41,514 bases of DNA from an archaeon (GCA_002687185.1 NYZO01000090.1:1-41514), one strand, 5' to 3'. Positions 11,426 through 29,266 are shown, counted from the stretch's first letter. Notes: generated by a model not told the origin, from the sequence alone. A program made the numbers and translations.

Positions 11426-11698
11426 ATGAAACTTATTATTATGAAAAAATTAACACTATACCAACTAGAAACATGCCCGTATTGTATCACTGCACGTGAA
11501 GCCTTGGACGAGAAAGGAATAAAGTACGAAGTAGTGAACGTGCCAGGGCCAAGACCTGATAGAAAAGAAGTAATTGAGATCTCAGGACAAGCTGAAGTGC
11601 CAGTACTTGTAGTTGAGGAAGAAGGTAAAAAACAAGTAATATTTCATGACGAGAAAATTATTGAATATATTAACGAACATCCAGAGTTGAGTAAATAA
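11426..11698 (+). CDS. glutaredoxin-like protein
   Basis: 90 aa with a CPYC active site after a beta strand (LTLYQLETCPYCITAREAL) and a thioredoxin-fold length. Confidence 0.75.
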   Translation: MKLIIMKKLTLYQLETCPYCITAREALDEKGIKYEVVNVPGPRPDRKEVIEISGQAEVPVLVVEEEGKKQVIFHDEKIIEYINEHPELSK

Positions 11699-11704
11699 AC
11701 CGAA

Positions 11705-12697
11705 TTATGAATCGCAAGCTTGACTATTCGTACAATCAGGATCATTACTACAACAAGCAGTTACTTGTGACGGAATTGTCCATTGAGCGCTTTGATAATC
11801 AAGCGGGCAAACGCCGTCGGATACTGTGTCGCAATGTTTGACAACAGCACCAGAACACATCGAAATGCCAGGAGCGTTACAAACCTGACCGCTACAACCT
11901 ACACCGCCAGGGCAACAAACCAACGTATAACAATAACATTTCTCGCCTGATGCACAAACGCCACTTTGACTTTCGTCATCTTCAATATGGTAATAACCAG
12001 CATCGTTACTACAGGTGCCAAGAGGATCAGTACAGCCTGATGGCTGACTCGGAAGGACACTGCAACCACTAATATCGTAATTACCTAAACTGGTGCAGTA
12101 TTCGTCACAAGTCCCAAACGATGGAGGGAGGGTTGTAGTCGTTGTGCCGCCTGGAATAGTTGTTGTAGTACTACCAGGTAACGTAGTCGTAGTCGTTGGA
12201 GGCGGTGGCTGGACAACAGCAGTTGATGGACAAACACCGTCAGGGGTTGTGATACATACATGGATACCGCCAGTGTCAGCTGAAGTGGCCACGATCTTTA
12301 ATCGGTGAGTACCCTCACTTGATGGAAGAGTAATGGTCTCTCCAGAAATCTTTTTGCCCAACTGAATGTCAACGTTTGATCTAACAGCCACTTGGCTTTG
12401 AGCGCCGGTTGGAGCGCTTGTAACGAACACAATCTCGTCACTATTATCATCAACTAACACATATTCTATGCCGCCAGGAAAACGCACATCAATAGTATTT
12501 TGTGAGCCCTCGCCCAAATAATAAATGCTCTCTGCTTGTTTGATGATCTCTTTGCTGATAGCTTGGGTTTGACTCAAGTCTGTTTGATACTCAGAATCGG
12601 TTGTATACACAGTAAAGATTATCATAGTTGGGATCAAAAGTACTAATACAATGCCTACCAAGATTACATATTCAGTCGCAATCTGGCCACGTCTCAT
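11705..12697 (-). CDS. type IV pilin-like protein fused to a Thr/Pro linker and Cys-rich modules (putative pilus adhesin)
   Basis: Class III signal peptide MRRG|QIATEYVILVGIVLVLLI with Glu at +5. Thr/Pro linker at aa 164-192 (12122-12208). 12-Cys module at aa 197-273 (11879-12109). A second Cys motif at aa 281-328 (11714-11857). Confidence 0.75.
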   Translation of the reverse strand: MRRGQIATEYVILVGIVLVLLIPTMIIFTVYTTDSEYQTDLSQTQAISKEIIKQAESIYYLGEGSQNTIDVRFPGGIEYVLVDDNSDEIVFVTSAPTGAQSQVAVRSNVDIQLGKKISGETITLPSSEGTHRLKIVATSADTGGIHVCITTPDGVCPSTAVVQPPPPTTTTTLPGSTTTTIPGGTTTTTLPPSFGTCDEYCTSLGNYDISGCSVLPSQPSGCTDPLGTCSNDAGYYHIEDDESQSGVCASGEKCYCYTLVCCPGGVGCSGQVCNAPGISMCSGAVVKHCDTVSDGVCPLDYQSAQWTIPSQVTACCSNDPDCTNSQACDS

Positions 12698-12700
12698 TAG

Positions 12701-13144
12701 TTATGCCTCGACCGTCCCTGAAATAGTAAAAACAGAAGAGTGATCAAGACTTCCGCCGTCAAGCTTGTAATTAATAGATACAGTACCAGAATAAAAACTG
12801 TCAGCATCTAAGCCAGTAATAGTGCAAGTTATGGTGTCAGTCGGAAATGTGTCCCACCCATTACAGCTTGATGGAACTCCATTAATCTCAATTAAAACTG
12901 TAGGTTCTGGACTTGTTTCAATGCCAGTGCCAGTAATATCAAGCTCAATCTGGTTCGCGCCTGCACTCACCTTCAAATCGTTACACACGAACGGGTCGAT
13001 AAAAGAACACTGAGTCGGGACTGAAACACGACCCTGAGTCAAAAAGAACGCAGCGCCAACACCAATGCCGATCAATAATAAAGCGAACCCGTAAGTTGTT
13101 AAAAATTCTGTTGCCGCTTGACCTTTTCTCATATATTTTGCCAT
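12701..13144 (-). CDS. type IV pilin-like protein (candidate major pilin)
   Basis: Class III signal peptide MAKYMRKG|QAATEFLTTYGFALLLIGIGV with Glu at +5. Small 147-aa beta-rich body. Its start overlaps the upstream stop by 1 nt (TAATG). Confidence 0.75.
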   Translation of the reverse strand: MAKYMRKGQAATEFLTTYGFALLLIGIGVGAAFFLTQGRVSVPTQCSFIDPFVCNDLKVSAGANQIELDITGTGIETSPEPTVLIEINGVPSSCNGWDTFPTDTITCTITGLDADSFYSGTVSINYKLDGGSLDHSSVFTISGTVEA

Positions 13145-14160
13145 TATGTACCCACCCCTTGAAAAAACTTTCCTATAACTTTAATCAAGAAAAAGAATAA
13201 TAAGATAGAAATGCCTGCAAACACAGGGATAGTCTTTAAACCTTCTTTAGCGTTACCTTTGCGTACAGCAGATATGATCAATGACGAAAAAATAGAACTG
13301 ATAAGTAAGATGACAACCACAAACCACTGGAACATATCAGGCGTGATTTGGATAGTGCCTAAACTGAGCGGTAACTGCGATTGGCTTAATGTACTCTCAA
13401 TAGACGCGAAATCAACTTGGGATAATAAATTTTCCATTAAAGTGATCAATTGCAAAGCAACAGCGAACAACAGTGGAGACGCGACCACTGTGCTGAATGC
13501 GATGAAAATAACATAAGTAGTAACACTTGATGAAACTTCTTTGCGCATGATTGAAGATTCCTTGATGTTCCATGCGATCTTGTTCAATAATTCGCCGACA
13601 GCGCCACCAGCCTCAATGCCCTCAACAAGTAATGTAATAGATTTTTTGAGTGTGTCAGAATTGAAACGTTTAGTGAATGAAATTAGTGCCTCCTCAAGGT
13701 CAGAGCCGGTCATGGTCTTTTTGGCTGCGATCTGGATCTCTTGGGCAAGGATGCCAAAACGTGGTCGTACAGCAAACCATAGTGCTTGGTCAATAGTCAA
13801 TCCAGAGTCGACATTAGCAGCAACCAATTGCAAATAGTCAGACAGGACCGATTCGACAGCTACTGTGCGTTTGTGGATGCGCAGAATAATATACGAATAA
13901 AGACCTAAGGCAGCCACAAGAGCCCCACCAACTAAATAGACTAAAAATGACACAAGAAATGATAAAACAATCCCACCACCAGACAGTAAAGCAAGGTTTG
14001 ACTGAGGCAAGGCAATAGACAATATCGTTGCGCCAATACCAAGCAAAAACGTAATAATGACACCAAAAAGCATGATGTCAGCAGCAGTCCTTTGAGTGCC
14101 AGTCTTTTTCATGATCTCATTAAACTTTTTCTCCATGGTCGGCGTGAGCATTATGGCCAT
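13144..14160 (-). CDS. T2SSF-domain pilus platform protein (TadC/EpdK-like half)
   Basis: Polytopic membrane protein with one cytoplasmic T2SSF-like domain (LQLVAANVDSGLTIDQALWFA ... LVEGIEAGGAVGELL). Confidence 0.7.
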   Translation of the reverse strand: MAIMLTPTMEKKFNEIMKKTGTQRTAADIMLFGVIITFLLGIGATILSIALPQSNLALLSGGGIVLSFLVSFLVYLVGGALVAALGLYSYIILRIHKRTVAVESVLSDYLQLVAANVDSGLTIDQALWFAVRPRFGILAQEIQIAAKKTMTGSDLEEALISFTKRFNSDTLKKSITLLVEGIEAGGAVGELLNKIAWNIKESSIMRKEVSSSVTTYVIFIAFSTVVASPLLFAVALQLITLMENLLSQVDFASIESTLSQSQLPLSLGTIQITPDMFQWFVVVILLISSIFSSLIISAVRKGNAKEGLKTIPVFAGISILLFFFLIKVIGKFFQGVGT

Positions 14161-14161
14161 G

Positions 14162-14989
14162 TTAAATACTCACCCCTGGACGAGAACCCTGAATATACAA
14201 CAAGAAAAAAAGCTGAGCGAAACCTACCAGACCAGCAACCACGTACAATAACTTAATATCAAGCGGGATAGTAGACAAAAACATGGACAAGATTAAAATG
14301 ATAACCACACCCAAAGACGGCATAATAACTGTCACCATAAGATAAAACATAACGATAGGGTTTAGCTTGCGACCATAATCGCGCATTTCAACAATCTGCT
14401 CTGCAGTGATTTGTTTGAGGATCGCTTGCAAGGCTTGAGCCATGTCAGCACCAGTAGCTAACGCGTTCATGATCTGCCATAGAAATGTACGGAAATAAGC
14501 AGACGGAGTAGTGTTAATCAAGGTTTCAATGGCTTTGTCGATGGGTGTTCCAAGGCTTACGCGCTTGATCACGCTAGATAGTTCTTTGCTAATCTCACCG
14601 TAACCAGAAGAGGCGTTTGCAATAGCGTTATATAAAGGAACACCAGAAGTTAACTCAATTAAGATATATCTACCCGCAAAGACTACATCAGCGTCGATCT
14701 TTTTTTGCTTAGATTTCATCTTGAACACGGGCTGTTGCAGGAAGTAATTGAAAAATAAAAATGGGGTGAACAAGGTTAAGATTAATACGATGATAATGAA
14801 GATATTGAAGCCGAACCGGATTAAGGCCAATAATAAAACGAAAAATAATAATACACCGCCCATGATGAGAGCGCGCATTAACGATTTTCGAATGAACTCT
14901 TCAGGAGTGTTTTCTATGCCGGCTTGCTGAAGCTGAGCTTTGAAACCAGCTTTTTTGCGAAGCGTTGATCTTACAATTTGTTCTAGCAA
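14162..14989 (-). CDS. T2SSF-domain pilus platform protein (TadB/EpdJ-like half)
   Basis: Polytopic membrane protein with one T2SSF-like domain (LIELTSGVPLYNAIANAS ... IMNALATGADMAQAL). It lies 1 nt from the next gene. Confidence 0.7.
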   Translation of the reverse strand: MLEQIVRSTLRKKAGFKAQLQQAGIENTPEEFIRKSLMRALIMGGVLLFFVLLLALIRFGFNIFIIIVLILTLFTPFLFFNYFLQQPVFKMKSKQKKIDADVVFAGRYILIELTSGVPLYNAIANASSGYGEISKELSSVIKRVSLGTPIDKAIETLINTTPSAYFRTFLWQIMNALATGADMAQALQAILKQITAEQIVEMRDYGRKLNPIVMFYLMVTVIMPSLGVVIILILSMFLSTIPLDIKLLYVVAGLVGFAQLFFLLYIQGSRPGVSI

Positions 14990-14996
14990 TCTTTCA

Positions 14997-16502
14997 TCAC
15001 CTAGGCACGCTTGGTTTTTGTTGGGTTTTTTGAGGATGCTCTTGAGGAGATTTGATTTTGTTTAATAATGCTTTCTTGTTTGCGTAATATGCGGCAATAA
15101 CACGACCAACAGCATCAACTGTGTTAACACGGTTTTTGACCAGCCAATGTAATACTATCTCTTTCTCAGCTAAGTCGTTAGATAATTCAGGCAAACTCAT
15201 GCCGGTGTGCAACGCCAGACGCTTGATTAATGTGTTAGACTGGGCAACAGCGTTGATTTTGTTTGTGCGAGTGTCTAATTTGAATAATACATGAGCTCCA
15301 CCTCTCTCGTCAACCTCTGCAAACTCTAACATTCTACGGATGCCGGTGCGCCTGTTACGGTACATTACTAAAATGCCTGCAATGGCTGGGAGCATTAATA
15401 CAGGAACGTTAATAGGAGGGCTTGTTAAACGTGTGATCAGCTCAGCAGTATTATCAGCGTGCACTGTCGCATAAACTGCGTGACCTGTGTGGATAGACTC
15501 AAAGAGTACTTGAGCTTCACGCTCGCGACGGATCTCGCCAACAACAATACGGTCAGGGCGCATTCTTAGAGAGTTAATCATTAAGTCCAGCATGGAAACC
15601 TCGCCCTTGCCTTCAGTGTTTGGGAAACGCACGACCATAGGAACCCAATGAAGAAATTTAGGCAAACGCAATTCTAGGGTGTCCTCAATTGAGATGATTC
15701 GTTGGTTAGGCGGGAAGAAACCTGAAATTGCATTCAATGCGCTTGTCTTACCAGACGCGGTACCGCCGCTAACTAAAAGAGACATCTCGTATTGGCATGC
15801 CATCCAGACCAAAGCTGCAAGCGGCAGTGAAATAGTGCCCTCACTCAAGAAATCAACAATTGTCCAAGGCTTTGACGCGAACTTACGCAGAGTGATTGTG
15901 TTACCGCGCTTTGAAATTGGTGAAATAGTAGCATTAACACGGTCGCCGGTCTCTAGGTGCGCGTCCATAAGCGGCTTGAGAACAGTTATAGCACGACCAA
16001 CTTGTCGGCCGATCAAATTTGAATAATGACGAATTTGAGCCTCGTCTTTTAATTGGATATTAGTTTTGAGCCAACCGTGCTTGTGATGATAGACCCAAAT
16101 TGGCTCGGCAGCGTTATTGATCGCGATCTCTTCTAAATTACTATCGTCAAGTAAAATCTCTACCTTGCCCATGCCTAAGCTTTTTTGGATTAGATATGTC
16201 TTGAAAAAACTAGCAGCGCTAGGAGATACCGTTGGAAAGAATTGTGAAATTTTGATCTTGACCTGGGACTCGAACTTCTCTCTGATACGGTCCTTTTTTT
16301 TCGGGTCGGTCAAATCAGCCATGTCTAAATTGACTTCATCGACTAATAAATCTTTGATCTTGTTGAGAATAAGCTCAGTGTTCGGACTTAAATTTGGGAT
16401 GGATAATTCGTATACACGGACGAACTCGTCAGGCTTGGTCCTAATACGAACATAAATGGGAATGTTCTCTGAATAAAACTTGTAAGATTCAATGGCCACC
16501 AT
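14997..16502 (-). CDS. type IV pilus/secretion ATPase (FlaI/TadA/VirB11, GspE family)
   Basis: Walker A GGTASGKTS, Walker B/Asp box RPDRIVVGEIR, His box HTGHAVYATVHA, and an N-terminal ITLRKF-type motif. Confidence 0.85.
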   Translation of the reverse strand: MVAIESYKFYSENIPIYVRIRTKPDEFVRVYELSIPNLSPNTELILNKIKDLLVDEVNLDMADLTDPKKKDRIREKFESQVKIKISQFFPTVSPSAASFFKTYLIQKSLGMGKVEILLDDSNLEEIAINNAAEPIWVYHHKHGWLKTNIQLKDEAQIRHYSNLIGRQVGRAITVLKPLMDAHLETGDRVNATISPISKRGNTITLRKFASKPWTIVDFLSEGTISLPLAALVWMACQYEMSLLVSGGTASGKTSALNAISGFFPPNQRIISIEDTLELRLPKFLHWVPMVVRFPNTEGKGEVSMLDLMINSLRMRPDRIVVGEIRREREAQVLFESIHTGHAVYATVHADNTAELITRLTSPPINVPVLMLPAIAGILVMYRNRRTGIRRMLEFAEVDERGGAHVLFKLDTRTNKINAVAQSNTLIKRLALHTGMSLPELSNDLAEKEIVLHWLVKNRVNTVDAVGRVIAAYYANKKALLNKIKSPQEHPQKTQQKPSVPR

Positions 16503-16508
16503 CTTTTT

Positions 16509-17093
16509 TTAATGAGCATGCAGGTTGCCCATATAGCTTGCGATTTTTTGCAGGTTATTTTCGAATGCTTTGGTTTGGGACTCAATCTTTTTAAATCTTT
16601 CTCTCAAACGTACGAAATGGCGATACTTCTCTTTGTTAACCTCGAACTGTTTTAAATCAACGAGGAGTTTGAACGTTTGTTCTTCAAGCAATGTTTTCTG
16701 GTCTAAGATGATCGCGAGCGGTTTTGCAAGACGTTTCTTCTTACGCGGTCTCAGATCCAAATACTCTTTTTTTAACCATAATAAAAATTCGCGCTTGGCT
16801 TTGATGTCTTTGATGGTAGCTTGTGCTTTGATCAATAGAATATCACGCTCCTTTTCCATGTCTTCTTTGCTTTTCTTTAGATGTTTTATACGATTGGGAT
16901 CGGAAATAGTAAGATAAGGCGTAGAAAACTTATAATCTATCTGGAAAATCTTTGCCTCTTCTAAGAAAACTGCCCACTCGTGCACGATTGCTACTGGTAG
17001 GTTTAATTGTTTAGCAGCCTCGTCGATTGAGATGCGTTTTTCATTCTTAACAATATTAATGAACGTATCAACAGCAGTCTTAATCTCTTCCAT
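16509..17093 (-). CDS. wHTH plus coiled-coil accessory protein of the pilus locus
   Basis: HTH-like N-terminus (ISIDEAAKQLNLPVAIVHEWAVFLEE) followed by a Lys/Glu-rich coiled coil. It ends 6 nt upstream of the ATPase gene and has its own BRE/TATA. Confidence 0.5.
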   Translation of the reverse strand: MEEIKTAVDTFINIVKNEKRISIDEAAKQLNLPVAIVHEWAVFLEEAKIFQIDYKFSTPYLTISDPNRIKHLKKSKEDMEKERDILLIKAQATIKDIKAKREFLLWLKKEYLDLRPRKKKRLAKPLAIILDQKTLLEEQTFKLLVDLKQFEVNKEKYRHFVRLRERFKKIESQTKAFENNLQKIASYMGNLHAH

Positions 17094-17155: not shown

Positions 17156-18694
17156 TCAGGTCTGGCACTCAATTTTGTTAATTTTCAGACCGTTACCAGC
17201 GCCGGTTGCATAATTGTCATCAGAATCTGTCTCGAAAGTGATGATCTTTGGATCATAGATATTCGGATTAAGTGTTGCGGTCAATTCACCATTATCTTTT
17301 CCGCTAATACTTTGTCCACCAACTATGCTAAAGACGTCTTTATTTAATTCAGTATCTATAATATACGTAAACTTAATCGTGTTTGTGCCTATTGGACATG
17401 TACAAGCAGTTGAACAACCCAAACCATCAATGTAATCATTGTGCCAGACATTGACACCTAAACCACCGTTTACACCATCCACTAAGCTCGGACATGAAAA
17501 AGCTGGACAGCTAGGAGGAGGAGGCGCAGGACTACAATCGCAACAAGTACGAGATAGAGGACTTTCTCGACAAAAGTCTGGTTGAGGAATGGTATAACTG
17601 CTATCTACACCGTATGAACAGTAACTAGTACAAGATTGGCTCGTACAAGAATATCCGCCATTACAACCCACATCAATACCACAAGAACAAGTACTTAAAC
17701 CGTATTGTCCAGCCAAGCCTGAGTCAAACCGGAAATTAGTTTCAGACCCGCTAGGATTGCATAAAGGTTCACTGCTAATGCTTACAACACAATCGTCGTC
17801 GTCTGCACTCACACCACCGTAATATTGCCAATCGAGTAATCGGTACTTTTGACTGTTACCACCAACATGGCCAGGTAGTAATGGGCGCTCTATGCCTAAA
17901 CTACTTGAACCAGGGCTTGGTTTGAACCTGTCAAGATAACTCCGGCCGCCGTTGCGCTCAACAAACTCTTGGTCGTTTGCAACGCTTGTATAATCAGTAG
18001 GTGAATTTGGAAACGATGATGCTTGGATAATCTTTAATTCACCACCGTTACGCAAAAGTATCGGATCTTGTGCAAAGTCAATTAAGCTAACGCGTGGAGT
18101 GATAGAGAACGTTCGGTCAAGGTCGATTTTTGGGTCTTGGGTAGACAATTCTAAACGGACACTAAACGGTTGACCGTCTGGCTGCTGTACAATAACTGAC
18201 CATGCATCGTCTTGAGTTATTTTGAGATCTGAGTCATCGAGGTTTTTTAAAGGTCCTCCTGAAGCAACACCCGTTAAGGTGATTTCGGTGCTGTCAAGGC
18301 CGGATTTTCCAGATAATGATTCAAACGAGGCTATTTGTTCTGCGATAGTGAAATCGTCCATGAACGAGTTTGTCACGCCGCCAGATCCGTCGATGCTGCC
18401 GTAGATCATAAGATTTGAGATCGCAGTTGGCGGATCGTTAAATGCAGAATTAGTATTGTCTTGTTTTAACTCGTCTTGCATGGCTACTAAAGCCTGTTTT
18501 AATGATAACTTCATAATGTCAACAATAAACGCGTCTTCAATATTACTACCAAAATCGGTCAAAGTAGTAACCCGAATCTGGTCAACAGTGATCTCGGTTT
18601 TTGTGTCTCTTATCTGATACGTTAAAAATAAAGCTAATAAAATCAAGACCAAACCAGCGGTCATAATAGTGAAGAAAAAACCGCGCCTATTCAT
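17156..18694 (-). CDS. large pilin-like protein with a Cys-rich region
   Basis: Class III-like N-terminus MNRRG|FFFTIMTAGLVLILLALFL. Cys-rich segment at aa 302-433 (17396-17791) containing CCDCSPAPPPPSCPAFSCP. Its start overlaps the upstream stop by 8 nt. Confidence 0.65.
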   Translation of the reverse strand: MNRRGFFFTIMTAGLVLILLALFLTYQIRDTKTEITVDQIRVTTLTDFGSNIEDAFIVDIMKLSLKQALVAMQDELKQDNTNSAFNDPPTAISNLMIYGSIDGSGGVTNSFMDDFTIAEQIASFESLSGKSGLDSTEITLTGVASGGPLKNLDDSDLKITQDDAWSVIVQQPDGQPFSVRLELSTQDPKIDLDRTFSITPRVSLIDFAQDPILLRNGGELKIIQASSFPNSPTDYTSVANDQEFVERNGGRSYLDRFKPSPGSSSLGIERPLLPGHVGGNSQKYRLLDWQYYGGVSADDDDCVVSISSEPLCNPSGSETNFRFDSGLAGQYGLSTCSCGIDVGCNGGYSCTSQSCTSYCSYGVDSSYTIPQPDFCRESPLSRTCCDCSPAPPPPSCPAFSCPSLVDGVNGGLGVNVWHNDYIDGLGCSTACTCPIGTNTIKFTYIIDTELNKDVFSIVGGQSISGKDNGELTATLNPNIYDPKIITFETDSDDNYATGAGNGLKINKIECQT

Positions 18695-20663
18695 TCAAAC
18701 CAACCTCGACGCCGATAATACTAGGATCCTGAATAGATGGCGCTGGTAGCGTTGTTGTTGTAGTGGTGGTGGTTGTAGTCGTAGTAGTAGAAGTTGTGGT
18801 AGTTGTGCCGCCAGGTAACGTAGTAGTTGTGGTCCCCCCACCGCCTGTTGCACAAGCGCTACCATCAGCTGTGCAGATATTGTCTGGACAACAAGTGAGT
18901 TCAATACAACGGCAAGTTCCGGCGGCGCAAGTGCCCCCTAGAGCATCAAATATTGTTCCTTCGCCGGCGTTTGGCAAACAAGAAGTGAACGATTCCATGC
19001 AGAACATGTCCGAAGGAGTGACTTGGCAGGTCGATAAATAAGTAGGATCAAGATCAGTACAATACTCCTGACAAGATACCCCTGGAGGTATTCCTGGAGG
19101 TGGTGGAGTACATTCATTACCATCACAAGGGCCGAAATTACAACAACTGACCATGCCACAATAACAACTTTCGCCCAAGATTGGACAACTACCACCGCCG
19201 AACTGGTAATGAATCTCGCCTGAGCCAGAACACTCTAGCGGTATTGAATCTGAACAAATACTGGCAGGCAAACTCGAACCGCATATGGATTCAGTCGTGC
19301 CGAAGATGTCATTACACGAAGTAGCGCAATCATCAATTTCAGGGATAGTTGTTGTGGTCGTGGTTGTTGTAGTTGTAGTGGTGGTAGTTGTAGTCGTTGT
19401 AGTAGTAGTTGTAGTTGTGGTTGGAGGAGTAGTGTCACAAGAAACGCCGTCAGCTGTACAAAGATTTTCTGTACAACAAGATATGTCAATACAATAACAA
19501 GATTCGCCAGGGTTGCAGGTGCCGCCGCTGCCTGAAATGATTAAACCTTCACCGGCGTTAGGTAAACAAGAAGTGAACGATTCTATGCAAAAATCAGTTA
19601 CTGGTGTGGTTGAGCATGACGGAAGGTAATTAGGATCAAGGCCTGTACAATATTGTGAGCAAGTAGGTACTATAGGCGGCGGTATAGGAACAGAACAATC
19701 AATTCCGTTTGGATCACACTGATTGGTATCACAACAAGTTACAGTGCCACAATAACATGATTCTCCAGGGTCGCATGTGCCGCCGCCGGGTTGGTAGCGT
19801 ATCTCACCAGTGCTGGTAGCAGGGCACTCAGAAGGTATTGATTCAGAACAAATATCGCCAGGCTGGCTTAATTCACACCTTGGTTGTGTTGAGCCGAATA
19901 CGTCGCTGCAGACCGTAGCACAATCATCAGCAGGGATCGTAGTCGTAGTAGTCGTTGTAGTAGTAGTAGTAGTGGTTGTAGTAGTAGTGGTGGTAGTCGT
20001 AGTAGTGGGAGTCGAGCCGCATGCAGTACCGTCAACAGAACAAAGATTTTCTGAGCAACAACCTAAATTTACACACAAACAAAACTCGCCAGGGTCACAA
20101 AGATCAGCACCCCCTGGCACATAATTTAGGACGCCTGCATTTGGACTGCACAAATCAGTGAAGCAACTGTCCGGACGGGTTGCATCATCCCAACAGCCAC
20201 CGCCGAAATAGGTATTTGCAACGCAATCAGCTTGGCAGGTTGGTGAAGGCACGGTTGTAGTGGTGGTAGTCGTTGTAGTAGTTGTGGTAGTTGTTGTGGT
20301 TGTAGTCGTTGTAGTAGTAGGAGGAATAGTCGTTGTTGTGGTTGGTTCTATAGTGGTTGTTGTCGTTGGAGGGATAGTCGTAGTAGTGGTGGTCGTAGTT
20401 GTAGTAGTCGTGGTAGTGGTCGTAGTAGTTGTGGTGGGGGGAGGACAAGAATCACATTGAGGATCGCAACACTCGCCGTCGCTAGGACAACTCACCTTAT
20501 TTCCATAATCGCTTGGACAGACCGCGTCAACATCACCGCAAGTATAAGTTATAGTAGAACAAAAAGTAATATACGGACACGCTGCGTTAACTGTTTCTAG
20601 ACCAATAGAAAGAAAGAATACTAAAGAAATAATAATTATAATATATTTTACCCTGTTCATCAA
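18687..20663 (-). CDS. secreted mosaic Cys-module/poly-Thr surface protein (putative adhesin)
   Basis: Sec-type signal peptide (cleavage near VNA|A). N-terminal 9-Cys domain (aa 28-76). Five 12-Cys modules (aa 143-219, 248-334, 335-414, 446-530, 531-610) separated by poly-Thr tracts. No C-terminal TM anchor. Confidence 0.8.
   Translation of the reverse strand: MMNRVKYIIIIISLVFFLSIGLETVNAACPYITFCSTITYTCGDVDAVCPSDYGNKVSCPSDGECCDPQCDSCPPPTTTTTTTTTTTTTTTTTTTTIPPTTTTTIEPTTTTTIPPTTTTTTTTTTTTTTTTTTTTTTVPSPTCQADCVANTYFGGGCWDDATRPDSCFTDLCSPNAGVLNYVPGGADLCDPGEFCLCVNLGCCSENLCSVDGTACGSTPTTTTTTTTTTTTTTTTTTTTTTTIPADDCATVCSDVFGSTQPRCELSQPGDICSESIPSECPATSTGEIRYQPGGGTCDPGESCYCGTVTCCDTNQCDPNGIDCSVPIPPPIVPTCSQYCTGLDPNYLPSCSTTPVTDFCIESFTSCLPNAGEGLIISGSGGTCNPGESCYCIDISCCTENLCTADGVSCDTTPPTTTTTTTTTTTTTTTTTTTTTTTTTIPEIDDCATSCNDIFGTTESICGSSLPASICSDSIPLECSGSGEIHYQFGGGSCPILGESCYCGMVSCCNFGPCDGNECTPPPPGIPPGVSCQEYCTDLDPTYLSTCQVTPSDMFCMESFTSCLPNAGEGTIFDALGGTCAAGTCRCIELTCCPDNICTADGSACATGGGGTTTTTLPGGTTTTTSTTTTTTTTTTTTTLPAPSIQDPSIIGVEVGLNE
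18750..18833 (-). repeat. C-terminal Thr-rich tract (T5-LPGG-T5-S-T13)
   Basis: Read from the ORF translation, aa 611-638. Confidence 0.85.
18834..19922 (-). repeat. tandem duplication of a two-module unit (period ~590 nt) inside the 658-aa gene
   Basis: Modules 2+3 (19422-19922) and modules 4+5 (18834-19328) are collinear: CATVCSDVFG.../CSQYCTGLDPNY... versus CATSCNDIFG.../CQEYCTDLDPTY.... An identical 20-mer, AAACAAGAAGTGAACGATTC, occurs at 18976-18995 and 19564-19583. Confidence 0.8.
19347..19421 (-). repeat. poly-Thr coding tract (25 consecutive Thr codons)
   Basis: Codon-by-codon reading places it between CDTTPP and IPEIDD. ACN codons are mixed. Confidence 0.9.
19938..20006 (-). repeat. 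poly-Thr coding tract (23 consecutive Thr codons)
   Basis: Codon-by-codon reading places it between CGSTP and IPADD. ACC, ACT, ACA and ACG codons are mixed. Confidence 0.9.
20253..20435 (-). repeat. Thr/Pro-rich spacer coding tract (61 codons: ~T20-IPP-T5-IEP-T5-IPP-~T22)
   Basis: Run of mixed ACN codons read codon by codon on the minus strand. It produces a poly-Val pseudo-ORF on the plus strand. Confidence 0.9.
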
Positions 20664-20701
20664 CTGCGCCCTCTTTTTGTCTATAAGAACGTGCAGTCTG
20701 A

Positions 20702-20718
20702 GAATTTATATAAAGCTT
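20702..20718 (-). promoter_or_regulatory. internal BRE/TATA promoter of the 658-aa gene
   Basis: The minus strand reads AAAGCTTTATATAAATT ~44 nt upstream of the ATG at 20663. A GAGGG Shine-Dalgarno-like element lies ~10 nt upstream of the ATG. Confidence 0.5.
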
Positions 20719-20744: not shown

Positions 20745-21215
20745 TTATCCTTGCTGAACACTGACGCCAGATTGAATCCTGCGTGACACAACAACAATGC
20801 GCGAATCAGTGGTTGCGACTGAGTTGTCGAGGTTCATCTTGAGTGAATATTGTTTAGTATACAACCCTTCTACAAGCTGTCTTTTCATACAATCTATCCT
20901 AGTGAGTTCCTCTCCATCACAGGTTATTGTTAGTGTGCCGAATTCGTCATCGTAAACACGCATCTGCTCAATCACCGTTAAATCAGTGTCAAGATCGCTA
21001 AACTGAGAGTCAGTAATGAAAGGATAATAACCCTCATCTTGTTTAAGCTCTTCAATCCTTACGTTTGAAAGTACATCCAAAGTATCAGTTGCTAAATATT
21101 GTAATTGAGTTAGAGGAGGTGAATTAATATAAAATAAATGGACCAATAAAACCACTAACGTAAACAATACTAAAGCTAGAATCGCGTCCAGTGTGAAAAA
21201 ATAGCCGCGTTTCAT
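20745..21215 (-). CDS. pilin-like protein (minor pilin candidate)
   Basis: Class III-like N-terminus MKRG|YFFTLDAILALVLFTLVVLLV. 156 aa. Confidence 0.6.
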   Translation of the reverse strand: MKRGYFFTLDAILALVLFTLVVLLVHLFYINSPPLTQLQYLATDTLDVLSNVRIEELKQDEGYYPFITDSQFSDLDTDLTVIEQMRVYDDEFGTLTITCDGEELTRIDCMKRQLVEGLYTKQYSLKMNLDNSVATTDSRIVVVSRRIQSGVSVQQG

Positions 21216-21216
21216 A

Positions 21217-21819
21217 TTATTCGGTCCAGACCAACACAGTCATCCTCAATATTCTATCATACGTGTCATCAACAAACACTAAACGGTTGAACTCAATTAT
21301 TTGTTTGATCTCTTTGTTTTGGACGCGTGTTTCAATCTCGTCTCTAACCTCTGTGACCGTGGTCCAACCGCCATCATCGTTGTCGACATGTAATTTTCCA
21401 GCGCCTGTGTGTCCTGGTGCCGGATAAATAATCGATCTATCATTAAGATAAACATAAAAATGTTTGTTAGTGCCAAGTCGAAGCTGGGCTTTTGCGTAAT
21501 TCTGATCAGTTAACGTGCCGTCGCCTAACTTACGTAACTTATCCAGATTAAAACGTTTATTACCGTCTGTTAAGCCGAGTTGTTTTACCGATGGATCGTC
21601 CCACCACTCACTATGGGTATTCCAATCCGTTGGCTCTCCAACAGCGATCAAATTTTGACTGATCTCTTGAGCTTCAATTAGTAACCCTTCAGTTAAGTTC
21701 TTAGTTTGTGTCATGCCAATCACTGTTTTTACGAAAATGAGCGAAATAATACTAATTATTATGATCGCCATGATAAAGTCCATGTACCAAAATTGACCAC
21801 GCTTTTTAATCGGTTTCAT
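21217..21819 (-). CDS. pilin-like protein (minor pilin candidate)
   Basis: Class III-like N-terminus MKPIKKRG|QFWYMDFIMAIIIISIISLIF. 200 aa. It overlaps the upstream gene by 4 nt. Confidence 0.6.
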   Translation of the reverse strand: MKPIKKRGQFWYMDFIMAIIIISIISLIFVKTVIGMTQTKNLTEGLLIEAQEISQNLIAVGEPTDWNTHSEWWDDPSVKQLGLTDGNKRFNLDKLRKLGDGTLTDQNYAKAQLRLGTNKHFYVYLNDRSIIYPAPGHTGAGKLHVDNDDGGWTTVTEVRDEIETRVQNKEIKQIIEFNRLVFVDDTYDRILRMTVLVWTE

Positions 21820-22250
21820 AGTGATGATTGTACACTCACAGTTATATCTCCGTTTATGTCTTTATTAATTTTGATGAAACGGTTTTGTGGAGTTATGTCG
21901 ATATCCAATGGAGTGTTAGATATTTCTATAGGCAAAAGCTTTGCAGAGGTGGACGGTTGACCTAAAATATTGGTCTGTACAGCGATCTCACGAGCGCCAA
22001 ATTGCAAAGAATACTCTTCTCCTGCAATGTCTGGGGGTAAGCTAAAAACACGCTCGTATTCAGGCCTTACACGGCCGGCTAACGATAACTCAGTTTTTAC
22101 TTTTAAAGCAATGTCTTCAGCACTGAACGTTTTACGTGCGCTGACAACATCGCGCGTATAAATAAATTCGATAGTGATAAAACCGATCAATAATATCATG
22201 GCAAGAGAAACCAGTAAAATTAATTCAATGGAAACCTGGCCGCGTCTCAT
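21816..22250 (-). CDS. pilin-like protein (minor pilin candidate)
   Basis: Class III signal peptide MRRG|QVSIELILLVSLAMILLIGF with the QxSxE pattern and Glu at +5. 144 aa. First gene of the locus. Confidence 0.7.
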   Translation of the reverse strand: MRRGQVSIELILLVSLAMILLIGFITIEFIYTRDVVSARKTFSAEDIALKVKTELSLAGRVRPEYERVFSLPPDIAGEEYSLQFGAREIAVQTNILGQPSTSAKLLPIEISNTPLDIDITPQNRFIKINKDINGDITVSVQSSL

Positions 22251-25096: not shown

Positions 25097-25239
25097 GGGC
25101 CCGTAGCTCAGCCTGGTTTAGAGCACTGAGGTTTTGTTTTACGACTAAATCGTGTAGGTCTTATATGACGGTCGTCGCTGCAAGCGGCGGGCATGTCTAA
25201 GCCAGCCAGAGGTCAGGGGTTCAAATCCCTTTGGGCCCA
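25097..25239 (+). tRNA. tRNA-Ile(UAU) with two introns (exons 25097-25128, 25158-25165, 25204-25239)
   Basis: Hand-folded. Acceptor GGGCCCG/TGGGCCC, D arm GCTC/GAGC, T arm AGGGG-TTCAAAT-CCCTT, discriminator A. Removing 25129-25157 (29 nt, position 29/30) and 25166-25203 (38 nt, position 37/38) gives a 76-nt tRNA. Its anticodon arm is CTGGT-CTTATAA-GCCAG. Both introns sit in helix-bulge-helix-bulge-helix motifs. Confidence 0.75.
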
Positions 25240-25498: not shown

Positions 25499-28400
25499 TC
25501 AATTCTCCTTAAAAACCGGGCCTCCAGGATATCTACTAGGTCCTTTAAACGAACCATCTTCTTCAAATTCGTGGGGAACTGGAGTCAGAGATTCCTCAGG
25601 GGCAATAATACCCTTTGATGCAGCTTGTGGCCATAATTTTCGCCCGGCGTCAGCAAAATCTTCGCCACATTCTGGAGATGCACCTAGACAGGTTTGAAAG
25701 TAAACTTTTCCACCAGGTTTTAGCATTGATCCAAATCCTGCTTGCCTAAACACCCCGGAAAAATCACGCGGAAATACCTGCTTCTCTTCACCCAAAGCTT
25801 TTCCTTGAGCAGGATCCCCTGTCCCAAACGCCATCGATAATTTTTCAGGTTCACCTTCTGGATAGCCTCCATGAGCATTGAAAATGATTGTATCTGCTGG
25901 ATATTTCGCCTCTTGACCATCCCATCCTGTAACTTCTTGCATGAACGTGATTATTTCTTGTTTTGTACTCAGATCATCATACACAACACGGTTTGAACCA
26001 AGTACTGAACTATGTGAATCTATTTCAGAAATTTCTGGATACATTAGATCCTCCATTTGTTGTTGGCCAACAGGCGTTGCGAACGCATCATTATAATCAA
26101 AATCAGGACCTACCACGATTACAAAATCACGATCATCATTACCAATACCTTCCGCATTTACGTTTTTATTATTTTCAACTAATTCTTGTAAAAGCTCAGT
26201 CGTTTTAAATCTGGATACATGGCTAATCCTCTCATTTTTGATTGCATTATGTATTATACTAACCTTATCTGCAATTTCTGGATCCGAAGAGTGCTTAGCG
26301 GTTTCTAGATCATGTAATACATCAAAATCACGAAAATCTTGTTGATTATAAAGCCCACCTATAACATAAAGACCGATATCTTCGAGTTCAGCATCTCCTA
26401 GGTTCGCTATTGCAGTATCTAATGCAGGCTGACCAAAATTCGCAAGAACTTCTAGACCATTCCTTCTCGTTAGTTCATTACCAACATCCATTGCATTAGC
26501 TAGTGGAGGAATAACTTCGTCGTGTGGCAATTTTGTCAGCGCGGTTATGGCTTCTGCTATAACAAACGGCCCTTTATTATCTAAATCTTTAATGATTACA
26601 CTTATCGTATTTGGATTATCAGCCCCGTAATCTCCAAGAAGATGTATTGATACTCGACGAAGATTATGTTCATTGCGAGGGTCAGTTAGTGAATTAATTA
26701 AGCTCTGCACTACTTCTTCTTTATTTTCTCCTTGTAAATGCCTTTCCAAGCTACTAATTATTTCCCCTCGTGATTGTTCATTGTATTCACGGTCAAGATG
26801 ATAAATCAATGTGGTAATCACACTGATGTCATTTAGTCCACCAAGATATTTTATAGCAGAAACCCTTAGCGCTACGTGATCACTTTTTAGCGCACTAACT
26901 ATCGCCCATTTTGCTTCATTCCCACCTATCTTACTCAGTGTATCAAATGCCCTAAATCGTACATTTCCATTAGGACTAGTTAAAAATTCCTTAAACCTTT
27001 GTATAGATTCAAAGTCCTCGAGCTCTCCAAGAGCAAATATTGCATTCGCTTGAACCGATGTCTCTTTATCATCCAATGCCTCTCTCAAAAAAATTAAAGC
27101 TTCCTGTTTTTTTAGTTGACCCAAAGAACGTGCTGCCTCGCTTCGAACAAATGTATCTTCATCTTTCAACATTCCGATCAAAGGTCCGACAACCCTAGGG
27201 TCATCAATCTCGCCAAAAGTTGCAGCAATCACCCGTCTCACATTAGGATGTGTATCCTCTTTTAGTTGATTTAACATAGGTACTATAGCCACCTCACCCA
27301 TTTCTACTAACAGTTCCTCTGCTACTAACCTCGCAAAATTATATTTTGAAGCTCGTAATAACAAGTGGACAATAGTCTGTTTTTCACCATCAGTTGTAGT
27401 TGGATCATAAGCAACATCCACAAGATTATCTAGCCCAACAGACAACCGATTTATTCTTTCTTCTGATAATCCATTTTGATCAAGTTCATCCAAAATTTGA
27501 ATAATTGTTTTATAAGTATCTGCATGAAATTCCCAGCTATGTACTTCTCTTTGAGCTGCATCGATAACATTTTCAGTTTCAGAAGTAGGACCTCCTCCAC
27601 TAGACGATTGCTCAGCATCACTTGAGGATTCATCTTCTATATATGATTCCATTTCATCTCCAGGAATCGCACCAAAAAATGCAGAAAGAAACATCCCCAT
27701 CCAACCCATCCCCATATTTTGTGCAGATAGCCCTGACACTTCCTCAATAGGTTTAAATGATCCGGTTTGTTGCGACGATGGTCTAAATAACGGCCTATAA
27801 GCACCCAATTCCGCCTCAGAAGTTTCCCATTCTTTTCTTACATCATATGTTTTCTTGGATTTCCCAGCTGGCAGAATATTCGATTTTATCTCTGCTGATA
27901 GATCATTAATCGTTCGACGCCTCCCCATTACAGGTTCGGCAGGAGCAAGATCAGAATTCTTCAGATTCCCCCTCATTTGATCAAAAGGCATATATTTTTT
28001 ATGACCTGGCCTCTTTGGATCATCCACTGCGAACCCGTACTCCCTCTTTGATCGCGGTTTATCTCTGGTTTCTGGATCAAGCATAATTTGCCTTCGAACA
28101 TCGTTGCCATTTTCGTCTCTTATCCAAACGTAAATGCTCGTCCCACCAACAATTTCCCCTCCTATTTTTCTATCACCACTTAACACTACCCCATCATGCT
28201 TGAGCGCGTCTTCTCCGTTCATTGAAAGCAAATTACCATTCCTTAAATCAAACAGCCATTCAGCATTCCATGATTGTCTACTTCCTTTACGAATAACACG
28301 AACGAGATTGCTTTTCCCATACGCATAATCTTCAGATAATTCGAGGTCTGTAACTATACCATCAATGGGTAATACATCTACATTTTTGGTTCGGGTTTTC

Positions 28401-29266
28401 AACCATCCTGAAAAAAAAGCACTCAAAACACCATTCTTTTTCGTAGTAGTAAATAAAATTTTGTCTTCTATCGTAGTCCAGTGTGTAAGTCTATCTTGGC
28501 GAATATGAGCTTTAGAATCAATAATTATTTCTACAGTTTCTACTACTGGTTTATTATAATCTTTGTTTAGTAGTCCACCATGCCCTTCCCGATATGTTCG
28601 TTGCTCAATCAGTTTTTGCGGTAATTTATTTGAACCAAAATCACCATAGGCAGAATCTCCGTACGCATTGTCTGTTCCAATAGGCTCATGTATATATGTA
28701 GAAGCCACAGACACCAGATTATCGTTTAGCCTCGCTCCAGGAACAAGTGTTAAAATACCAGCAACATTTTGCTCACACTCCGCTGTGTTACATCTCGTCC
28801 GAGTAAAGATTATTTTCTTCATGACCCTGTCTTGTTCATCTAGATATCTAAATTCAATCTTCTTTGACATATACTTCCCACCATATTTCCAAGAAACACT
28901 ATCAAAGATTGACCAAAGAGGCAGGTTTAGATCCACAGCAATTAATCGACTCGAGTCGTACACGTTCCATCCAGGTGTCCCAGCAATCGGGGGATTAAGC
29001 GCCTTAGGTTCCACTGGCCTTTCTCTTAGTCCAAAGATAACTTCTAGGATGCCATAACCAGTAAGATCTACTTTATTAGCCGAATTCAACACAGGCTCTG
29101 TAACATCCACCCAAATATCTGAGAACAGTTCAAACATAAGTGCAATAGGCGAATTTCTATTAGTTATATTTTTTTTAACTTGAGATTCAGCACTTACAGT
29201 TATAAGAGAGAGTATTAAAAACACACATAGCAGAGAGCTGAAAATGGTTTTAACCTTAGACTTCAT
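25499..29266 (-). CDS. large secreted protein: N-terminal unknown region, HEAT/PBS-lyase-like repeats, C-terminal clan-CD-like cysteine peptidase domain
   Basis: Signal peptide MKSKVKTIFSSLLCVFLILSLITVSA. HEAT-like repeats (DPRVVGPLIGMLKDEDTFVRSEAARSLGQL and others) at roughly 26400-27330. The C-terminus has hydrophobic strand+HG (TIIFNAHGG, His codon 25871-25873) and hydrophobic strand+QxC (KVYFQTCLG, Cys codon 25688-25690). Confidence 0.6.
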   Translation of the reverse strand: MKSKVKTIFSSLLCVFLILSLITVSAESQVKKNITNRNSPIALMFELFSDIWVDVTEPVLNSANKVDLTGYGILEVIFGLRERPVEPKALNPPIAGTPGWNVYDSSRLIAVDLNLPLWSIFDSVSWKYGGKYMSKKIEFRYLDEQDRVMKKIIFTRTRCNTAECEQNVAGILTLVPGARLNDNLVSVASTYIHEPIGTDNAYGDSAYGDFGSNKLPQKLIEQRTYREGHGGLLNKDYNKPVVETVEIIIDSKAHIRQDRLTHWTTIEDKILFTTTKKNGVLSAFFSGWLKTRTKNVDVLPIDGIVTDLELSEDYAYGKSNLVRVIRKGSRQSWNAEWLFDLRNGNLLSMNGEDALKHDGVVLSGDRKIGGEIVGGTSIYVWIRDENGNDVRRQIMLDPETRDKPRSKREYGFAVDDPKRPGHKKYMPFDQMRGNLKNSDLAPAEPVMGRRRTINDLSAEIKSNILPAGKSKKTYDVRKEWETSEAELGAYRPLFRPSSQQTGSFKPIEEVSGLSAQNMGMGWMGMFLSAFFGAIPGDEMESYIEDESSSDAEQSSSGGGPTSETENVIDAAQREVHSWEFHADTYKTIIQILDELDQNGLSEERINRLSVGLDNLVDVAYDPTTTDGEKQTIVHLLLRASKYNFARLVAEELLVEMGEVAIVPMLNQLKEDTHPNVRRVIAATFGEIDDPRVVGPLIGMLKDEDTFVRSEAARSLGQLKKQEALIFLREALDDKETSVQANAIFALGELEDFESIQRFKEFLTSPNGNVRFRAFDTLSKIGGNEAKWAIVSALKSDHVALRVSAIKYLGGLNDISVITTLIYHLDREYNEQSRGEIISSLERHLQGENKEEVVQSLINSLTDPRNEHNLRRVSIHLLGDYGADNPNTISVIIKDLDNKGPFVIAEAITALTKLPHDEVIPPLANAMDVGNELTRRNGLEVLANFGQPALDTAIANLGDAELEDIGLYVIGGLYNQQDFRDFDVLHDLETAKHSSDPEIADKVSIIHNAIKNERISHVSRFKTTELLQELVENNKNVNAEGIGNDDRDFVIVVGPDFDYNDAFATPVGQQQMEDLMYPEISEIDSHSSVLGSNRVVYDDLSTKQEIITFMQEVTGWDGQEAKYPADTIIFNAHGGYPEGEPEKLSMAFGTGDPAQGKALGEEKQVFPRDFSGVFRQAGFGSMLKPGGKVYFQTCLGASPECGEDFADAGRKLWPQAASKGIIAPEESLTPVPHEFEEDGSFKGPSRYPGGPVFKEN

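Follow-up and report, generated by a model that had tools for sequence, protein, structure and literature searches.

A protein with five 12-cysteine modules on poly-threonine stalks, most likely a lineage-specific pilus-associated adhesin of a marine archaeon

A 658-residue protein with a Sec-type signal peptide and five copies of a 12-Cys module is encoded within a type IV pilus-like operon on a 41,514-nucleotide stretch of archaeal DNA (GCA_002687185.1 NYZO01000090.1:1-41514), hereafter the window. The protein (the target) is most likely a lineage-specific pilus-associated adhesin, because its gene occupies the place that, in related archaea, is taken by the adhesive insert of a minor pilin. 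With moderate confidence, it is considered an adhesin passenger, split off, disulfide-knotted and probably O-glycosylated, that belongs to the type IV pilus-like filament of a marine Woesearchaeota-like DPANN archaeon; its disulfides, glycosylation, fold, anchoring and binding to a host or particle surface are what we infer. Overall, the target is of a known type, that of modular pilins or pilus adhesins, with an orphan domain as its building block, and, as judged by sequence comparison, the 12-Cys domain is almost without known relatives beyond this operon.

Table 1. Features of the target gene and of the surrounding pilus operon. Positions are counted from the first letter of the window.
Feature	Position	Strand	Remarks
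p144, pilin-like, class III signal	21816-22250	(-)	
p200, pilin-like, class III signal	21217-21819	(-)	
p156, minor pilin, class III signal (MKRG/YFFT)	20745-21215	(-)	Same reading frame as target
TATA-box-like (archaeal) motif TTTATATA	20707-20714	(-)	44-51 nt 5′ of TTG; consensus match only
Shine-Dalgarno-like GAGGG	20669-20673	(-)	6-10 nt 5′ of TTG, 9-13 nt 5′ of ATG; read from sequence
Target CDS	18687-20663	(-)	658 aa from TTG, 657 aa from adjacent ATG at 20660; stop 18687-18689
Sec-type signal peptide, aa 1-27	20583-20663	(-)	MMNRVK, YIIIIISLVFFLSIGL, ETVNA/A; read from sequence
9-Cys N-terminal cap domain, aa 28-76	20436-20582	(-)	Kin to C-terminal Cys domain of p330
Stalk 1, 61-aa Thr/Pro/Ile tract, aa 77-137	20253-20435	(-)	
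Module M1, 12 Cys, aa 139-217	20013-20249	(-)	
Stalk 2, T23, aa 220-242	19938-20006	(-)	Mixed Thr codons
Module M2 (A-type), aa 244-325	19689-19934	(-)	
Module M3 (B-type), aa 331-411	19431-19673	(-)	Short Pro-rich linker to M2
Stalk 3, T25, aa 415-439	19347-19421	(-)	
Module M4 (A-type), aa 442-520	19104-19340	(-)	55% identity to M2
Module M5 (B-type), aa 527-606	18846-19085	(-)	57% identity to M3
Gly/Thr-rich terminal stalk, aa 607-638	18750-18845	(-)	
C-terminal tail LPAPSIQDPSIIGVEVGLNE	18690-18749	(-)	Last codons overlap p512 start
p512, pilin-like (MNRRG/FFFT)	17156-18694	(-)	
p194	16509-17093	(-)	
FlaI/VirB11-family ATPase	14997-16502	(-)	
T2SSF/TadC-like platform genes, two	13144-14160 and 14162-14989	(-)	
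p147 pilin	12701-13144	(-)	
Pilus core genes p147 to p194, whole block	12701-17093	(-)	
p330, modular pilin	11705-12697	(-)	Class III signal + pilin domain, T/P linker, 12-Cys module, cap-like Cys domain
p330 12-Cys module, aa 196-273	11879-12112	(-)	
p330 cap-like Cys domain, aa 274-330	11708-11878	(-)	

An earlier note on this sequence had described the open reading frame with its five modules, and both were confirmed almost to the residue. Its estimate of about 69 Cys proved exact (69 residues, 10.5%), and the Thr excess it reported amounts to 168 residues (25.5%). Across the remaining 33 ORFs of the window, the means are 0.83% for Cys and 6.2% for Thr; the target exceeds them 13-fold and 4-fold, respectively. 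On two near-identical Tara contigs, the gene was called as a 655-aa product from the ATG at 20660.

The proposed Sec-type signal is supported by its n/h/c layout, and the 9-Cys N-domain is present, with a local score of 65 against the C-terminal Cys domain of p330 (shuffles, 34.5 ± 6.7; 0 of 2000 reached 65). The nine Cys of the N-domain span aa 29-73, and those of M1 to M5 span aa 143-215, 248-323, 335-409, 446-518 and 531-604, respectively. Cys residues in all five modules are spaced by 3, 9/10, 8/9, 4-7, 14-16, 4-6, 1, 4, 0, 4 and 4-6 residues, exactly within the ranges previously given. The T23, T25 and 61-aa T/P spacers and the T-rich tail were all found, and Thr runs of T20, T22, T23, T25 and T13 form dense tracts in an exported protein. 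Separation of the modules by poly-Thr, as claimed, holds between M1 and M2 and between M3 and M4 but not between M2 and M3 or M4 and M5, where the connection is a Pro-rich linker of 11-12 residues. The tandem duplication, (A-B)x2, described as having a period of about 590 nt, has one of 198 aa (594 nt) and pairs M2 with M4 and M3 with M5 (identities in Table 1), all other module pairs being 29-39% identical. Neither a transmembrane helix nor a sorting signal was seen in the target when read directly, in line with the earlier description; its tail LPAPSIQDPSIIGVEVGLNE contains no hydrophobic helix and no PGF motif of the kind used by PGF-CTERM/archaeosortase anchors.

The physical link to pilus genes is supported by the neighboring ATPase (T2SSE, E = 1.5e-34; FlaI model, 260 bits), the two platform genes (T2SSF, E = 7e-16 and 3.5e-13) and the pilins; six genes, all on the same strand, carry class III signals of the form [KR]G/hydrophobic. 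With its secretion ATPase, two platform genes and multiple pilins, the operon resembles archaeal TFF "system 1" (Epd-like), as judged on gene content. Peptidase A24 (prepilin peptidase, EpdA/FlaK/PibD family) had no match among the ORFs scanned. The pilin-like p512 bears a C-terminal extension of ~200 aa with 18 Cys, which is missing in relatives of about 300-326 aa. If p512 starts at MNRRG/FFF, a start supported because its homologues carry class III signals, the reported 8-nt overlap with the target stop is real (18687-18694, ATGAATAG); it implies co-transcription and possibly translational coupling of the two genes, not the co-translation that had been proposed.

About 160 Woesearchaeota pilus loci share the operon order, and comparison with these showed the target gene to have been inserted between the genes of the minor pilins p156 and p512. 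None of the loci contained the target gene, which is therefore not needed for pilus function in general. Absence from, or disruption in, close relatives with intact pilus loci had been named beforehand as evidence against the proposal. Absence was observed, but in loci of remote relatives (ATPase identity 62% or less), and it thus indicates lineage specificity, not dispensability.

In these relatives, no gene separates the p156-like from the p512-like ORF, the stop of the former overlapping the ATG of the latter. The p156 homologue is a single ORF: its pilin module may be followed by an insert of 760-1870 aa, and it closes with a conserved tail of 15-20 aa. The terminal tail ..LWGPxIxEVRVWQ-stop is shared by 37 p156-like ORFs of 181-2024 aa (pattern ..P[SYT]L[WLF]GPxIxE[VI]R[VI]W[QEND]-stop, overlapping the ATG of the next gene). 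When six giant forms were compared, residues 1-165 of the short form corresponded to their N-terminus and the last 15-20 aa to their extreme C-terminus; VWA matches were obtained in all four giant forms scanned (two above the Pfam cut-off), two of which also weakly matched a MAM-like domain. The p156 of the window aligns with the family up to this slot and ends just before the conserved tail, while the target takes up the slot with an ORF of its own, in the same frame after two stop codons and with the same overlap junction with p512. Between p156 and the target lie 81 nt with both in-frame TAA stops and the TATA-like motif, which occurs five times in the window (4.4 expected), i.e., no more often than by chance.

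The target tail lies at the position of the p156-family tail, with the overlap of the p512 start. Among 4045 ORF tails, its gapped pairwise score ranked within the highest 1% (shuffle fraction 0.0065; about p = 0.01); with a profile of the 37 family tails, it was not ranked and its score was not significant. The tail is possibly a diverged remnant of ..PSLWGPxIxEVRVWQ-stop, and, since the invariant W, G, R and W have been lost, it may persist as a relic solely because the p512 start overlaps it.

The 12-Cys module resembles small disulfide-rich domains (EGF, granulin, hevein/CBM18, CBM1, knottins, defensins) in being ~75 aa long, with 12 Cys and CC and C-x-C motifs, but has no sequence match to any of them. 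The target had no match in Pfam or NCBIfam, including to beta-propeller, VWA, DUF2341 or Ig-fold domains; profile searches of the modules against the PDB at E up to 10 gave 0 matches, and no significant profile match was obtained to EGF, granulin, hevein/CBM18, CBM1, TIL, defensin or keratin-associated families. The only hmmscan matches of all seven modules (E up to 10) were Defensin-like (E = 0.012, one module of the seven) and Thiaminase-1 (E = 0.21). Structure prediction, as had been suggested, gave no dependable fold: for the single module, pLDDT was 66 in one of five models and 37-43 in the other four, and for the di-module it was 37; Foldseek returned nothing below E = 4. These Pfam, NCBIfam, PDB sequence and Foldseek negatives uphold the view that the module belongs to no named domain, and a match to a characterized family, which was to have counted against the earlier note, was not found.

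When 1.84 billion representative proteins were searched exhaustively with a profile, one true relative emerged, P0004 (MAF36648.1), in which a p147-type pilin with a class III signal is followed by a T linker, an A-B di-module and one more domain. The sixth module said to lie in the window was located in p330. Outside the target, the module was found on two class-III-signal pilins only, p330 and P0004, attached through Thr-rich linkers. P0013 is a p147-type pilin with a different Cys domain on three poly-Thr stalks written in the same "...TTTIP" idiom; class III signals are present in P0011, P0012 and P0013.

In the modular type IV pilins of Streptococcus sanguinis, PilB is a pilin with a vWA domain and PilC a pilin with a lectin domain (PMC8179133, whose survey covers bacteria). 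Grafting of a module onto a minor pilin for display on the filament is an exact fit to p330, P0004 and P0013, and, like PilB with its vWA, the p156-family giants of relatives have VWA matches. The target differs in having no pilin module, no class III signal and no [KR]-[GA] prepilin site; the slot holds an ORF of its own whose product is Sec-exported, what is grafted is an orphan 12-Cys module in five copies on poly-Thr stalks, and the host is archaeal (DPANN). The topology of GspK-type minor pseudopilins, in which a domain is inserted into the pilin beta-sheet (discussed in PMC8179133), recurs in the p156 family (pilin module, large insert, short conserved C-terminal segment), whereas here the insert is a separate gene. 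Archaeal T4P/TFF loci also encode PilY-like/DUF2341 "large adhesin-like proteins" (PMC4858521; bioRxiv 10.64898/2026.04.22.720090). The target resembles these and the PilY1/PilC tip adhesins as a large Sec-exported non-pilin protein within a minor-pilin operon, presumably displayed on the pilus for adhesion. Its build is wholly different, with Cys knots and mucin-like stalks in place of a C-terminal beta-propeller and/or vWA, VWA matches occurring only in the p156 giants of relatives.

On the preferred reading, an ancestral p156-type single ORF would have split into a truncated pilin, p156, and a separate passenger ORF that acquired a putative promoter, ribosome-binding site and Sec signal. 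The passenger would be co-transcribed with the minor pilins, probably translationally coupled to p512, and exported by Sec as an extracellular fiber, in which a small Cys-rich cap and five disulfide-knotted beads (one single, then two A-B pairs) are spaced out by extended, probably O-glycosylated poly-Thr stalks. Because it has no class III signal, it cannot itself polymerize into the filament; docking of the C-terminal tail onto p156, lipidation of Cys29 or release are candidate fates. In p330 the cap is the C-terminal (distal) domain, in the target the N-terminal one, which fits a C-terminally attached target. A two-piece tip adhesin, in which the Sec passenger re-attaches to p156 with its tail supplying the missing last pilin strand and the cap recognizes the host, is a distinctly doubtful elaboration. 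The cap would then stand some tens of nanometers off the filament, where it would serve an episymbiotic marine DPANN archaeon in recognizing its host; if true, such an adhesin would be the first of type IV pili to work by strand complementation, and its disulfide-rich fold would be new.

The alternative that survives best, although unlikely, is a pilus-independent surface-coat or matrix glycoprotein, mucin-like, Sec-secreted and retained at the envelope, that landed in the pilus operon. S-layer-like proteins are often encoded in archaeal T4P loci (PMC4858521), the signal is Sec and not class III, and no docking element is demonstrable, the tail profile test being negative. Retention could occur through Cys29, two residues past the signal, where NAA/C after the h-region is a possible non-canonical lipobox; however, its -3 residue is Asn, which is not hydrophobic. 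Further against a coat protein, the module is elsewhere found only on pilins, the insertion is exactly at the minor-pilin passenger slot with complementary truncation of p156, and the stop/start overlap with p512 is retained.

If the beads were CBM- or lectin-like modules on glycosylated linkers, the cell would be tethered to polysaccharide particles or algal exopolymers rather than to a host, a reading that differs from the preferred one in ligand only. Cys-rich modules on Thr/Pro linkers are the classic CBM-glycoside hydrolase layout (PMC3490864). The source is marine, and aromatic and Gly positions persist across the modules (CYC, Y-x-P-G-G-G), but no CBM, hevein or lectin family was matched by the modules even at E up to 10, and the operon contains no catalytic partner. 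DPANN archaea are, moreover, generally regarded as cell-associated symbionts, and carbohydrate binding is considered quite improbable.

That the gene is a decaying remnant, the non-functional downstream part of a p156-family ORF broken by two in-frame stops, is highly improbable. The shared frame, the two TAA codons, the diverged tail and the absence of the exact protein from a 15-billion-protein collection would agree with decay; the coding sequence does not. All 12 Cys are retained across module copies only 29-57% identical, with saturated synonymous sites (pS 0.62-0.95) and pN of 0.21-0.28, which places the pattern beyond chance. Where computable, dN/dS is 0.12-0.24; purifying selection acts on the modules. 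Because the Thr tracts are written in mixed codons, selection at the protein level is suggested there as well. The new N-terminus bears a well-formed signal peptide, no frameshifts occur across 1.97 kb of repeat-rich sequence, and three independent Tara assemblies carry the gene without differences outside one short segment. A metal-binding (metallothionein- or zinc-knuckle-like) protein or secreted defensin-like toxin, suggested by the Cys content and the single, non-significant Defensin-like match, is scarcely credible given export to an oxic marine setting, the even 12 Cys per module with knottin-like CC and C-x-C spacing, the lack of a His or Asp ligand pattern, and a 658-aa beads-on-stalks layout unlike that of a toxin.

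Haloarchaeal S-layer glycoproteins bear a Thr-rich O-glycosylated stretch (see PMC6098224), to which the Thr tracts of the exported target are comparable; the O-glycosylation enzymes of archaea are poorly defined. Long, near-pure Thr tracts between exported folded modules also recall mucins and the fungal and bacterial CBM linkers (PMC3490864), those of the target being purer and longer than usual (T20-T25) and their glycosylation putative. Circumstantially in favor of O-glycosylation, a PMT_2 GT-C glycosyltransferase gene (30.6 bits; cut-off, 26.1) and GT2/GT4 genes lie within 10 kb of P0004.

The operon that holds the secreted-protein gene analyzed here (the target) runs on one strand in the order p144, p200 and p156 (pilus genes named by product length in amino acids, all three with class III signals), target, p512, p194, an ATPase of the FlaI/VirB11 family, two T2SSF platform genes and, at the end, p147 and p330, which again carry class III signals. 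Such a layout agrees with what has been published on the archaeal 'system 1' T4P/TFF loci of methanogens and DPANN, in which a pair of platform genes is accompanied by many pilins (PMC4858521; bioRxiv 10.64898/2026.04.22.720090). No other sequence found exceeded 62% identity to the ATPase, whose best matches were nearly all Woesearchaeota or GTDB Nanoarchaeota MAGs. Tara Oceans metagenomes contained identical copies of the locus. The window also carries a Hel308-type helicase domain 4, a YGR210-like GTPase, exosome subunits and an apparently intron-containing tRNA, and is archaeal as judged from these sequences. Coordinates are collected in the table.

Features of the target locus, its window and the contigs compared with it
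Feature	Location	Strand	Remarks
Target	18687-20663	-	
Modules M1-M5 of target	residues 143-215, 248-323, 335-409, 446-518, 531-604		12 Cys each
Thr tracts of target	residues 77-137, 220-242, 415-439, 607-638		61 aa (T/P/I); T23; T25; C-terminal tract
Module 2 end, differing segment	~19689-19720	-	differs from L002/L003
p156-target spacer			81 nt; two in-frame TAA; TTTATATA box 44-51 nt upstream of start; GAGGG
p512	17156-18694	-	directly after target; class III signal MNRRG|FFF
p330	11705-12697	-	class III signal and pilin domain; T/P linker; 12-Cys module (aa 196-273); 7-Cys tail domain
Glutaredoxin-fold ORF	~11426-11698	+	90 aa; mapped from L002 12381-12653
CheC/CheX-like protein	136-744	+	
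Rfam tRNA match	25097-25239	+	143 nt; 42 bits
HEAT-repeat protein	25499-29266	-	1255 aa
Phosphoglycerate kinase-PfkB fusion	33148-35394	+	748 aa; kinase domains at aa 7-391 and 466-727
Giant p156-family minor pilins	L061 2682-7526; L107 3015-7421; L134 2577-7430; L105 1275-7346; others		many Woesearchaeota; 900-2024 aa
P0013	L167 1328-3550		p147-type pilin
PMT_2 gene	L165 16327-18051	-	~5 kb from P0004
Listed beside PMT_2 gene	L165 6906-7838; 19590-21424		

The target ORF was as the earlier note had described it and spans 658 codons if read from the TTG; near-identical Tara Oceans contigs start at the ATG codon directly after it. Its N-terminus (MMNRVK, YIIIIISLVFFLSIGL, ETVNA|A) reads as the claimed Sec-type signal, and nine Cys were counted within residues 29-73, the proposed N-domain (here the cap). 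The estimate of about 69 Cys with Thr far above normal was borne out by counts of 69 Cys (10.5%) and 168 Thr (25.5%), compared with means of 0.83% and 6.2% for the window's remaining 33 ORFs. All five modules fall exactly inside the Cys spacing ranges proposed for them. Poly-Thr spacers had been placed between all modules; this holds except for M2-M3 and M4-M5, which are linked by short Pro-rich stretches instead. The suggested tandem duplication of ~590-nt period was recovered with a period of 594 nt: M2 and M4 (A-type) are 55% identical and M3 and M5 (B-type) 57%, other pairs reaching 29-39%, and the target is thus composed of M1 followed by two A-B di-modules. Both the target (69) and p330 (21) have an odd number of Cys, which leaves at least one per protein unable to enter an intramolecular disulfide.

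The genes flanking the target are conserved in related Woesearchaeota pilus loci. In these relatives a p156-like gene is followed directly by a p512-like gene, the ATG of which overlaps the p156-like stop codon. All 37 p156-like ORFs compared (181-2024 aa) end in P[SYT]LWGPxIxEVRVWQ. When six giant forms were aligned with short forms, residues 1-165 of the short form aligned at the N-terminus and its last 15-20 residues at the extreme C-terminus, from which the family was read as a pilin module, a variable insert and a conserved tail. The giant insert sits between the 150-aa pilin module and the invariant LWGPxIxEVRVWQ tail, which overlaps the next start codon. Four giant forms were scanned; all matched VWA, two of them above Pfam's cut-off, and two also gave a weak MAM-like match. 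The p156 of the window matches the short forms through SRRIQSGVSVQQG, which is the exact insert point, and then ends, lacking the tail. The target follows in the same frame, and its C-terminus is APSIQDPSIIGVEVGLNE before the stop, the last codons overlapping the p512 ATG as in relatives. A profile of 37 p156-family tails did not pick out the target tail; its gapped pairwise score against the family tail placed it among the highest 1% of 4045 ORF tails (shuffle fraction 0.0065). The target tail resembles the family tail only weakly, and descent from it is a plausible hypothesis. We conclude that the target, as a separate Sec-exported ORF, now fills the slot in which p156-family modular minor pilins carry their passenger. 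This apparent split into a truncated p156 and a separate target is the most interesting feature of the locus. The slot is empty in some lineages, holds an insert of up to ~1870 aa in others and here is served by a separate gene, and so shows how fast the adhesive part of archaeal pili is re-tooled.

The sixth module that the earlier note had counted in the window lies within p330; it scored 18 bits against a profile built without it and 80 bits against one that included it. The terminal small Cys domain of p330 is related to the target cap (local score 65, against 34.5 ± 6.7 for shuffles, 0 of 2000 of which reached it). A glutaredoxin-fold ORF adjoins this Cys-rich pilin and is convergent to the end of the operon. 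The neighboring pilin p512 bears a C-terminal extension of ~200 aa with 18 Cys, which homologues of ~300-326 aa lack; this extension was rejected as a relative of either the module or the cap (z = 0.2 and z = -0.4). The public 502-aa start of p512 (P0009) drops the class III signal and probably truncates the protein.

With the five-module profile, an exhaustive hmmsearch through 1.84 billion representative proteins returned three matches, of which one was true (P0001); the other two, P0002 (CCCH zinc-finger repeats) and P0003 (NHL-type repeats), were judged spurious on inspection. P0001 represents part of a longer protein, P0004 (MAF36648.1, 479 aa, 'archaeon'), which is a pilin of the p147 type (N-domain against window p147, E = 7e-8) and bears a class III signal. 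In P0004 the pilin part leads through a Thr linker into a single A-B di-module, followed by T6 and another domain of 130 aa; the pilin part of P0001 was rejected as a p330 orthologue, its match being p147. The module is thus known from three proteins (target, p330 and P0004), two of which are true modular pilins. The gene directly downstream of P0004 encodes a secreted protein of 610 aa that matches Peptidase_M64. Unrelated C-terminal modules occur on other p147-type archaeal pilins (P0011, P0012 and P0013). P0013 has three poly-Thr/Pro stalks of 28-66 residues with the TTTIP idiom of the target, two copies of a different Cys-containing domain (~130 aa each) and a third domain, with 21.9% Thr. 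The design of pilin, poly-Thr stalk and bead is therefore not unique to the window locus; the 12-Cys bead is.

As the earlier note had held, no named domain could be assigned: Pfam and NCBIfam scans of the full target and of each module, and a PDB sequence profile search with the module, were without match. AlphaFold2 models were unusable for one module (6 rows; pLDDT 66 for the best of five models and 37-43 for the rest) and for the di-module (3 rows; pLDDT 37), and Foldseek against the PDB returned BACE1 noise alone (E > 4). Neither module nor poly-Thr tract was found in ~160 other Woesearchaeota pilus loci (2.1 Mb total). Scans of JGI metagenome contigs and IMG/VR with the back-translated di-module, the 7-module alignment being too divergent as a query, gave no relatives. 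A word-indexed protein search with both queries also gave none; this is a weak negative, as P0001 and P0004 are in that collection and were missed although the query alignment held an exact substring of them. The exact target sequence is not in the collection. The module domain is new and extremely rare, in a kind of system (pilus-presented adhesin or modular pilin) that is already known.

Paralogous target modules differ at 0.21-0.28 non-synonymous and 0.62-0.95 (saturated) synonymous changes per site, with dN/dS of 0.12-0.24 where computable and all Cys kept. Slippage alone is an unlikely origin of the poly-Thr tracts, since the four Thr codons are mixed (ACT 75, ACA 41, ACC 33, ACG 19 in the target) and tract lengths are equal on three independent assemblies. 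The sole protein-level difference between the window and Tara contigs L002/L003 is at the end of module 2, which reads CDPNGIDCSVPIPPPIVPT in the window and CNGNVCDDPPPIPPVPT in L002/L003; the Tara segment shares its C-x4-C spacing with the other A-type modules, which points to recombination among the repeats, or to an assembly chimera inside them.

The passenger would probably form a fibre tens of nanometres long, by our own estimate from ~140 stalk residues and six small domains. Its poly-Thr stalks would be extended if O-glycosylated. Near P0004 are a PMT_2 gene (dolichyl-phosphate-mannose protein mannosyltransferase-like, GT-C) and several flanking GT2/GT4 genes, which are circumstantial signs of O-glycosylation. 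The beads are presumably disulfide-stabilized, which would fit an oxic marine setting. In p330 the cap sits distally and in the target at the N-terminus, which fits C-terminal attachment of the target; its tail possibly docks onto the truncated p156. Alternatively, the target might be lipidated at Cys29 (with a non-canonical NAA|C box) or released. The adhesin-like reading of the earlier note is strengthened by the operon and slot context, which makes the target a candidate adhesin.

An attached life on other cells is presumed for DPANN archaea, and to our knowledge almost none of their attachment molecules is known; the target locus is a concrete candidate for one. How a type IV filament holds a non-pilin passenger is a question that the apparent gene split puts in clean, testable form. 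The 12-Cys module with its poly-Thr stalk offers a compact display scaffold that is probably very stable. Practical impact is limited, because the organism is uncultured and the module family tiny.

Elsewhere in the window, phosphoglycerate kinase is fused to a PfkB-family sugar kinase in one ORF, closely flanked by GAPDH upstream and a ROK kinase downstream. The Rfam tRNA match, which adjoins tRNA-Glu and was missed by ARAGORN, is probably an intron-containing archaeal tRNA. The CheC/CheX-like and HEAT-repeat proteins are both unexpected in a small DPANN genome.
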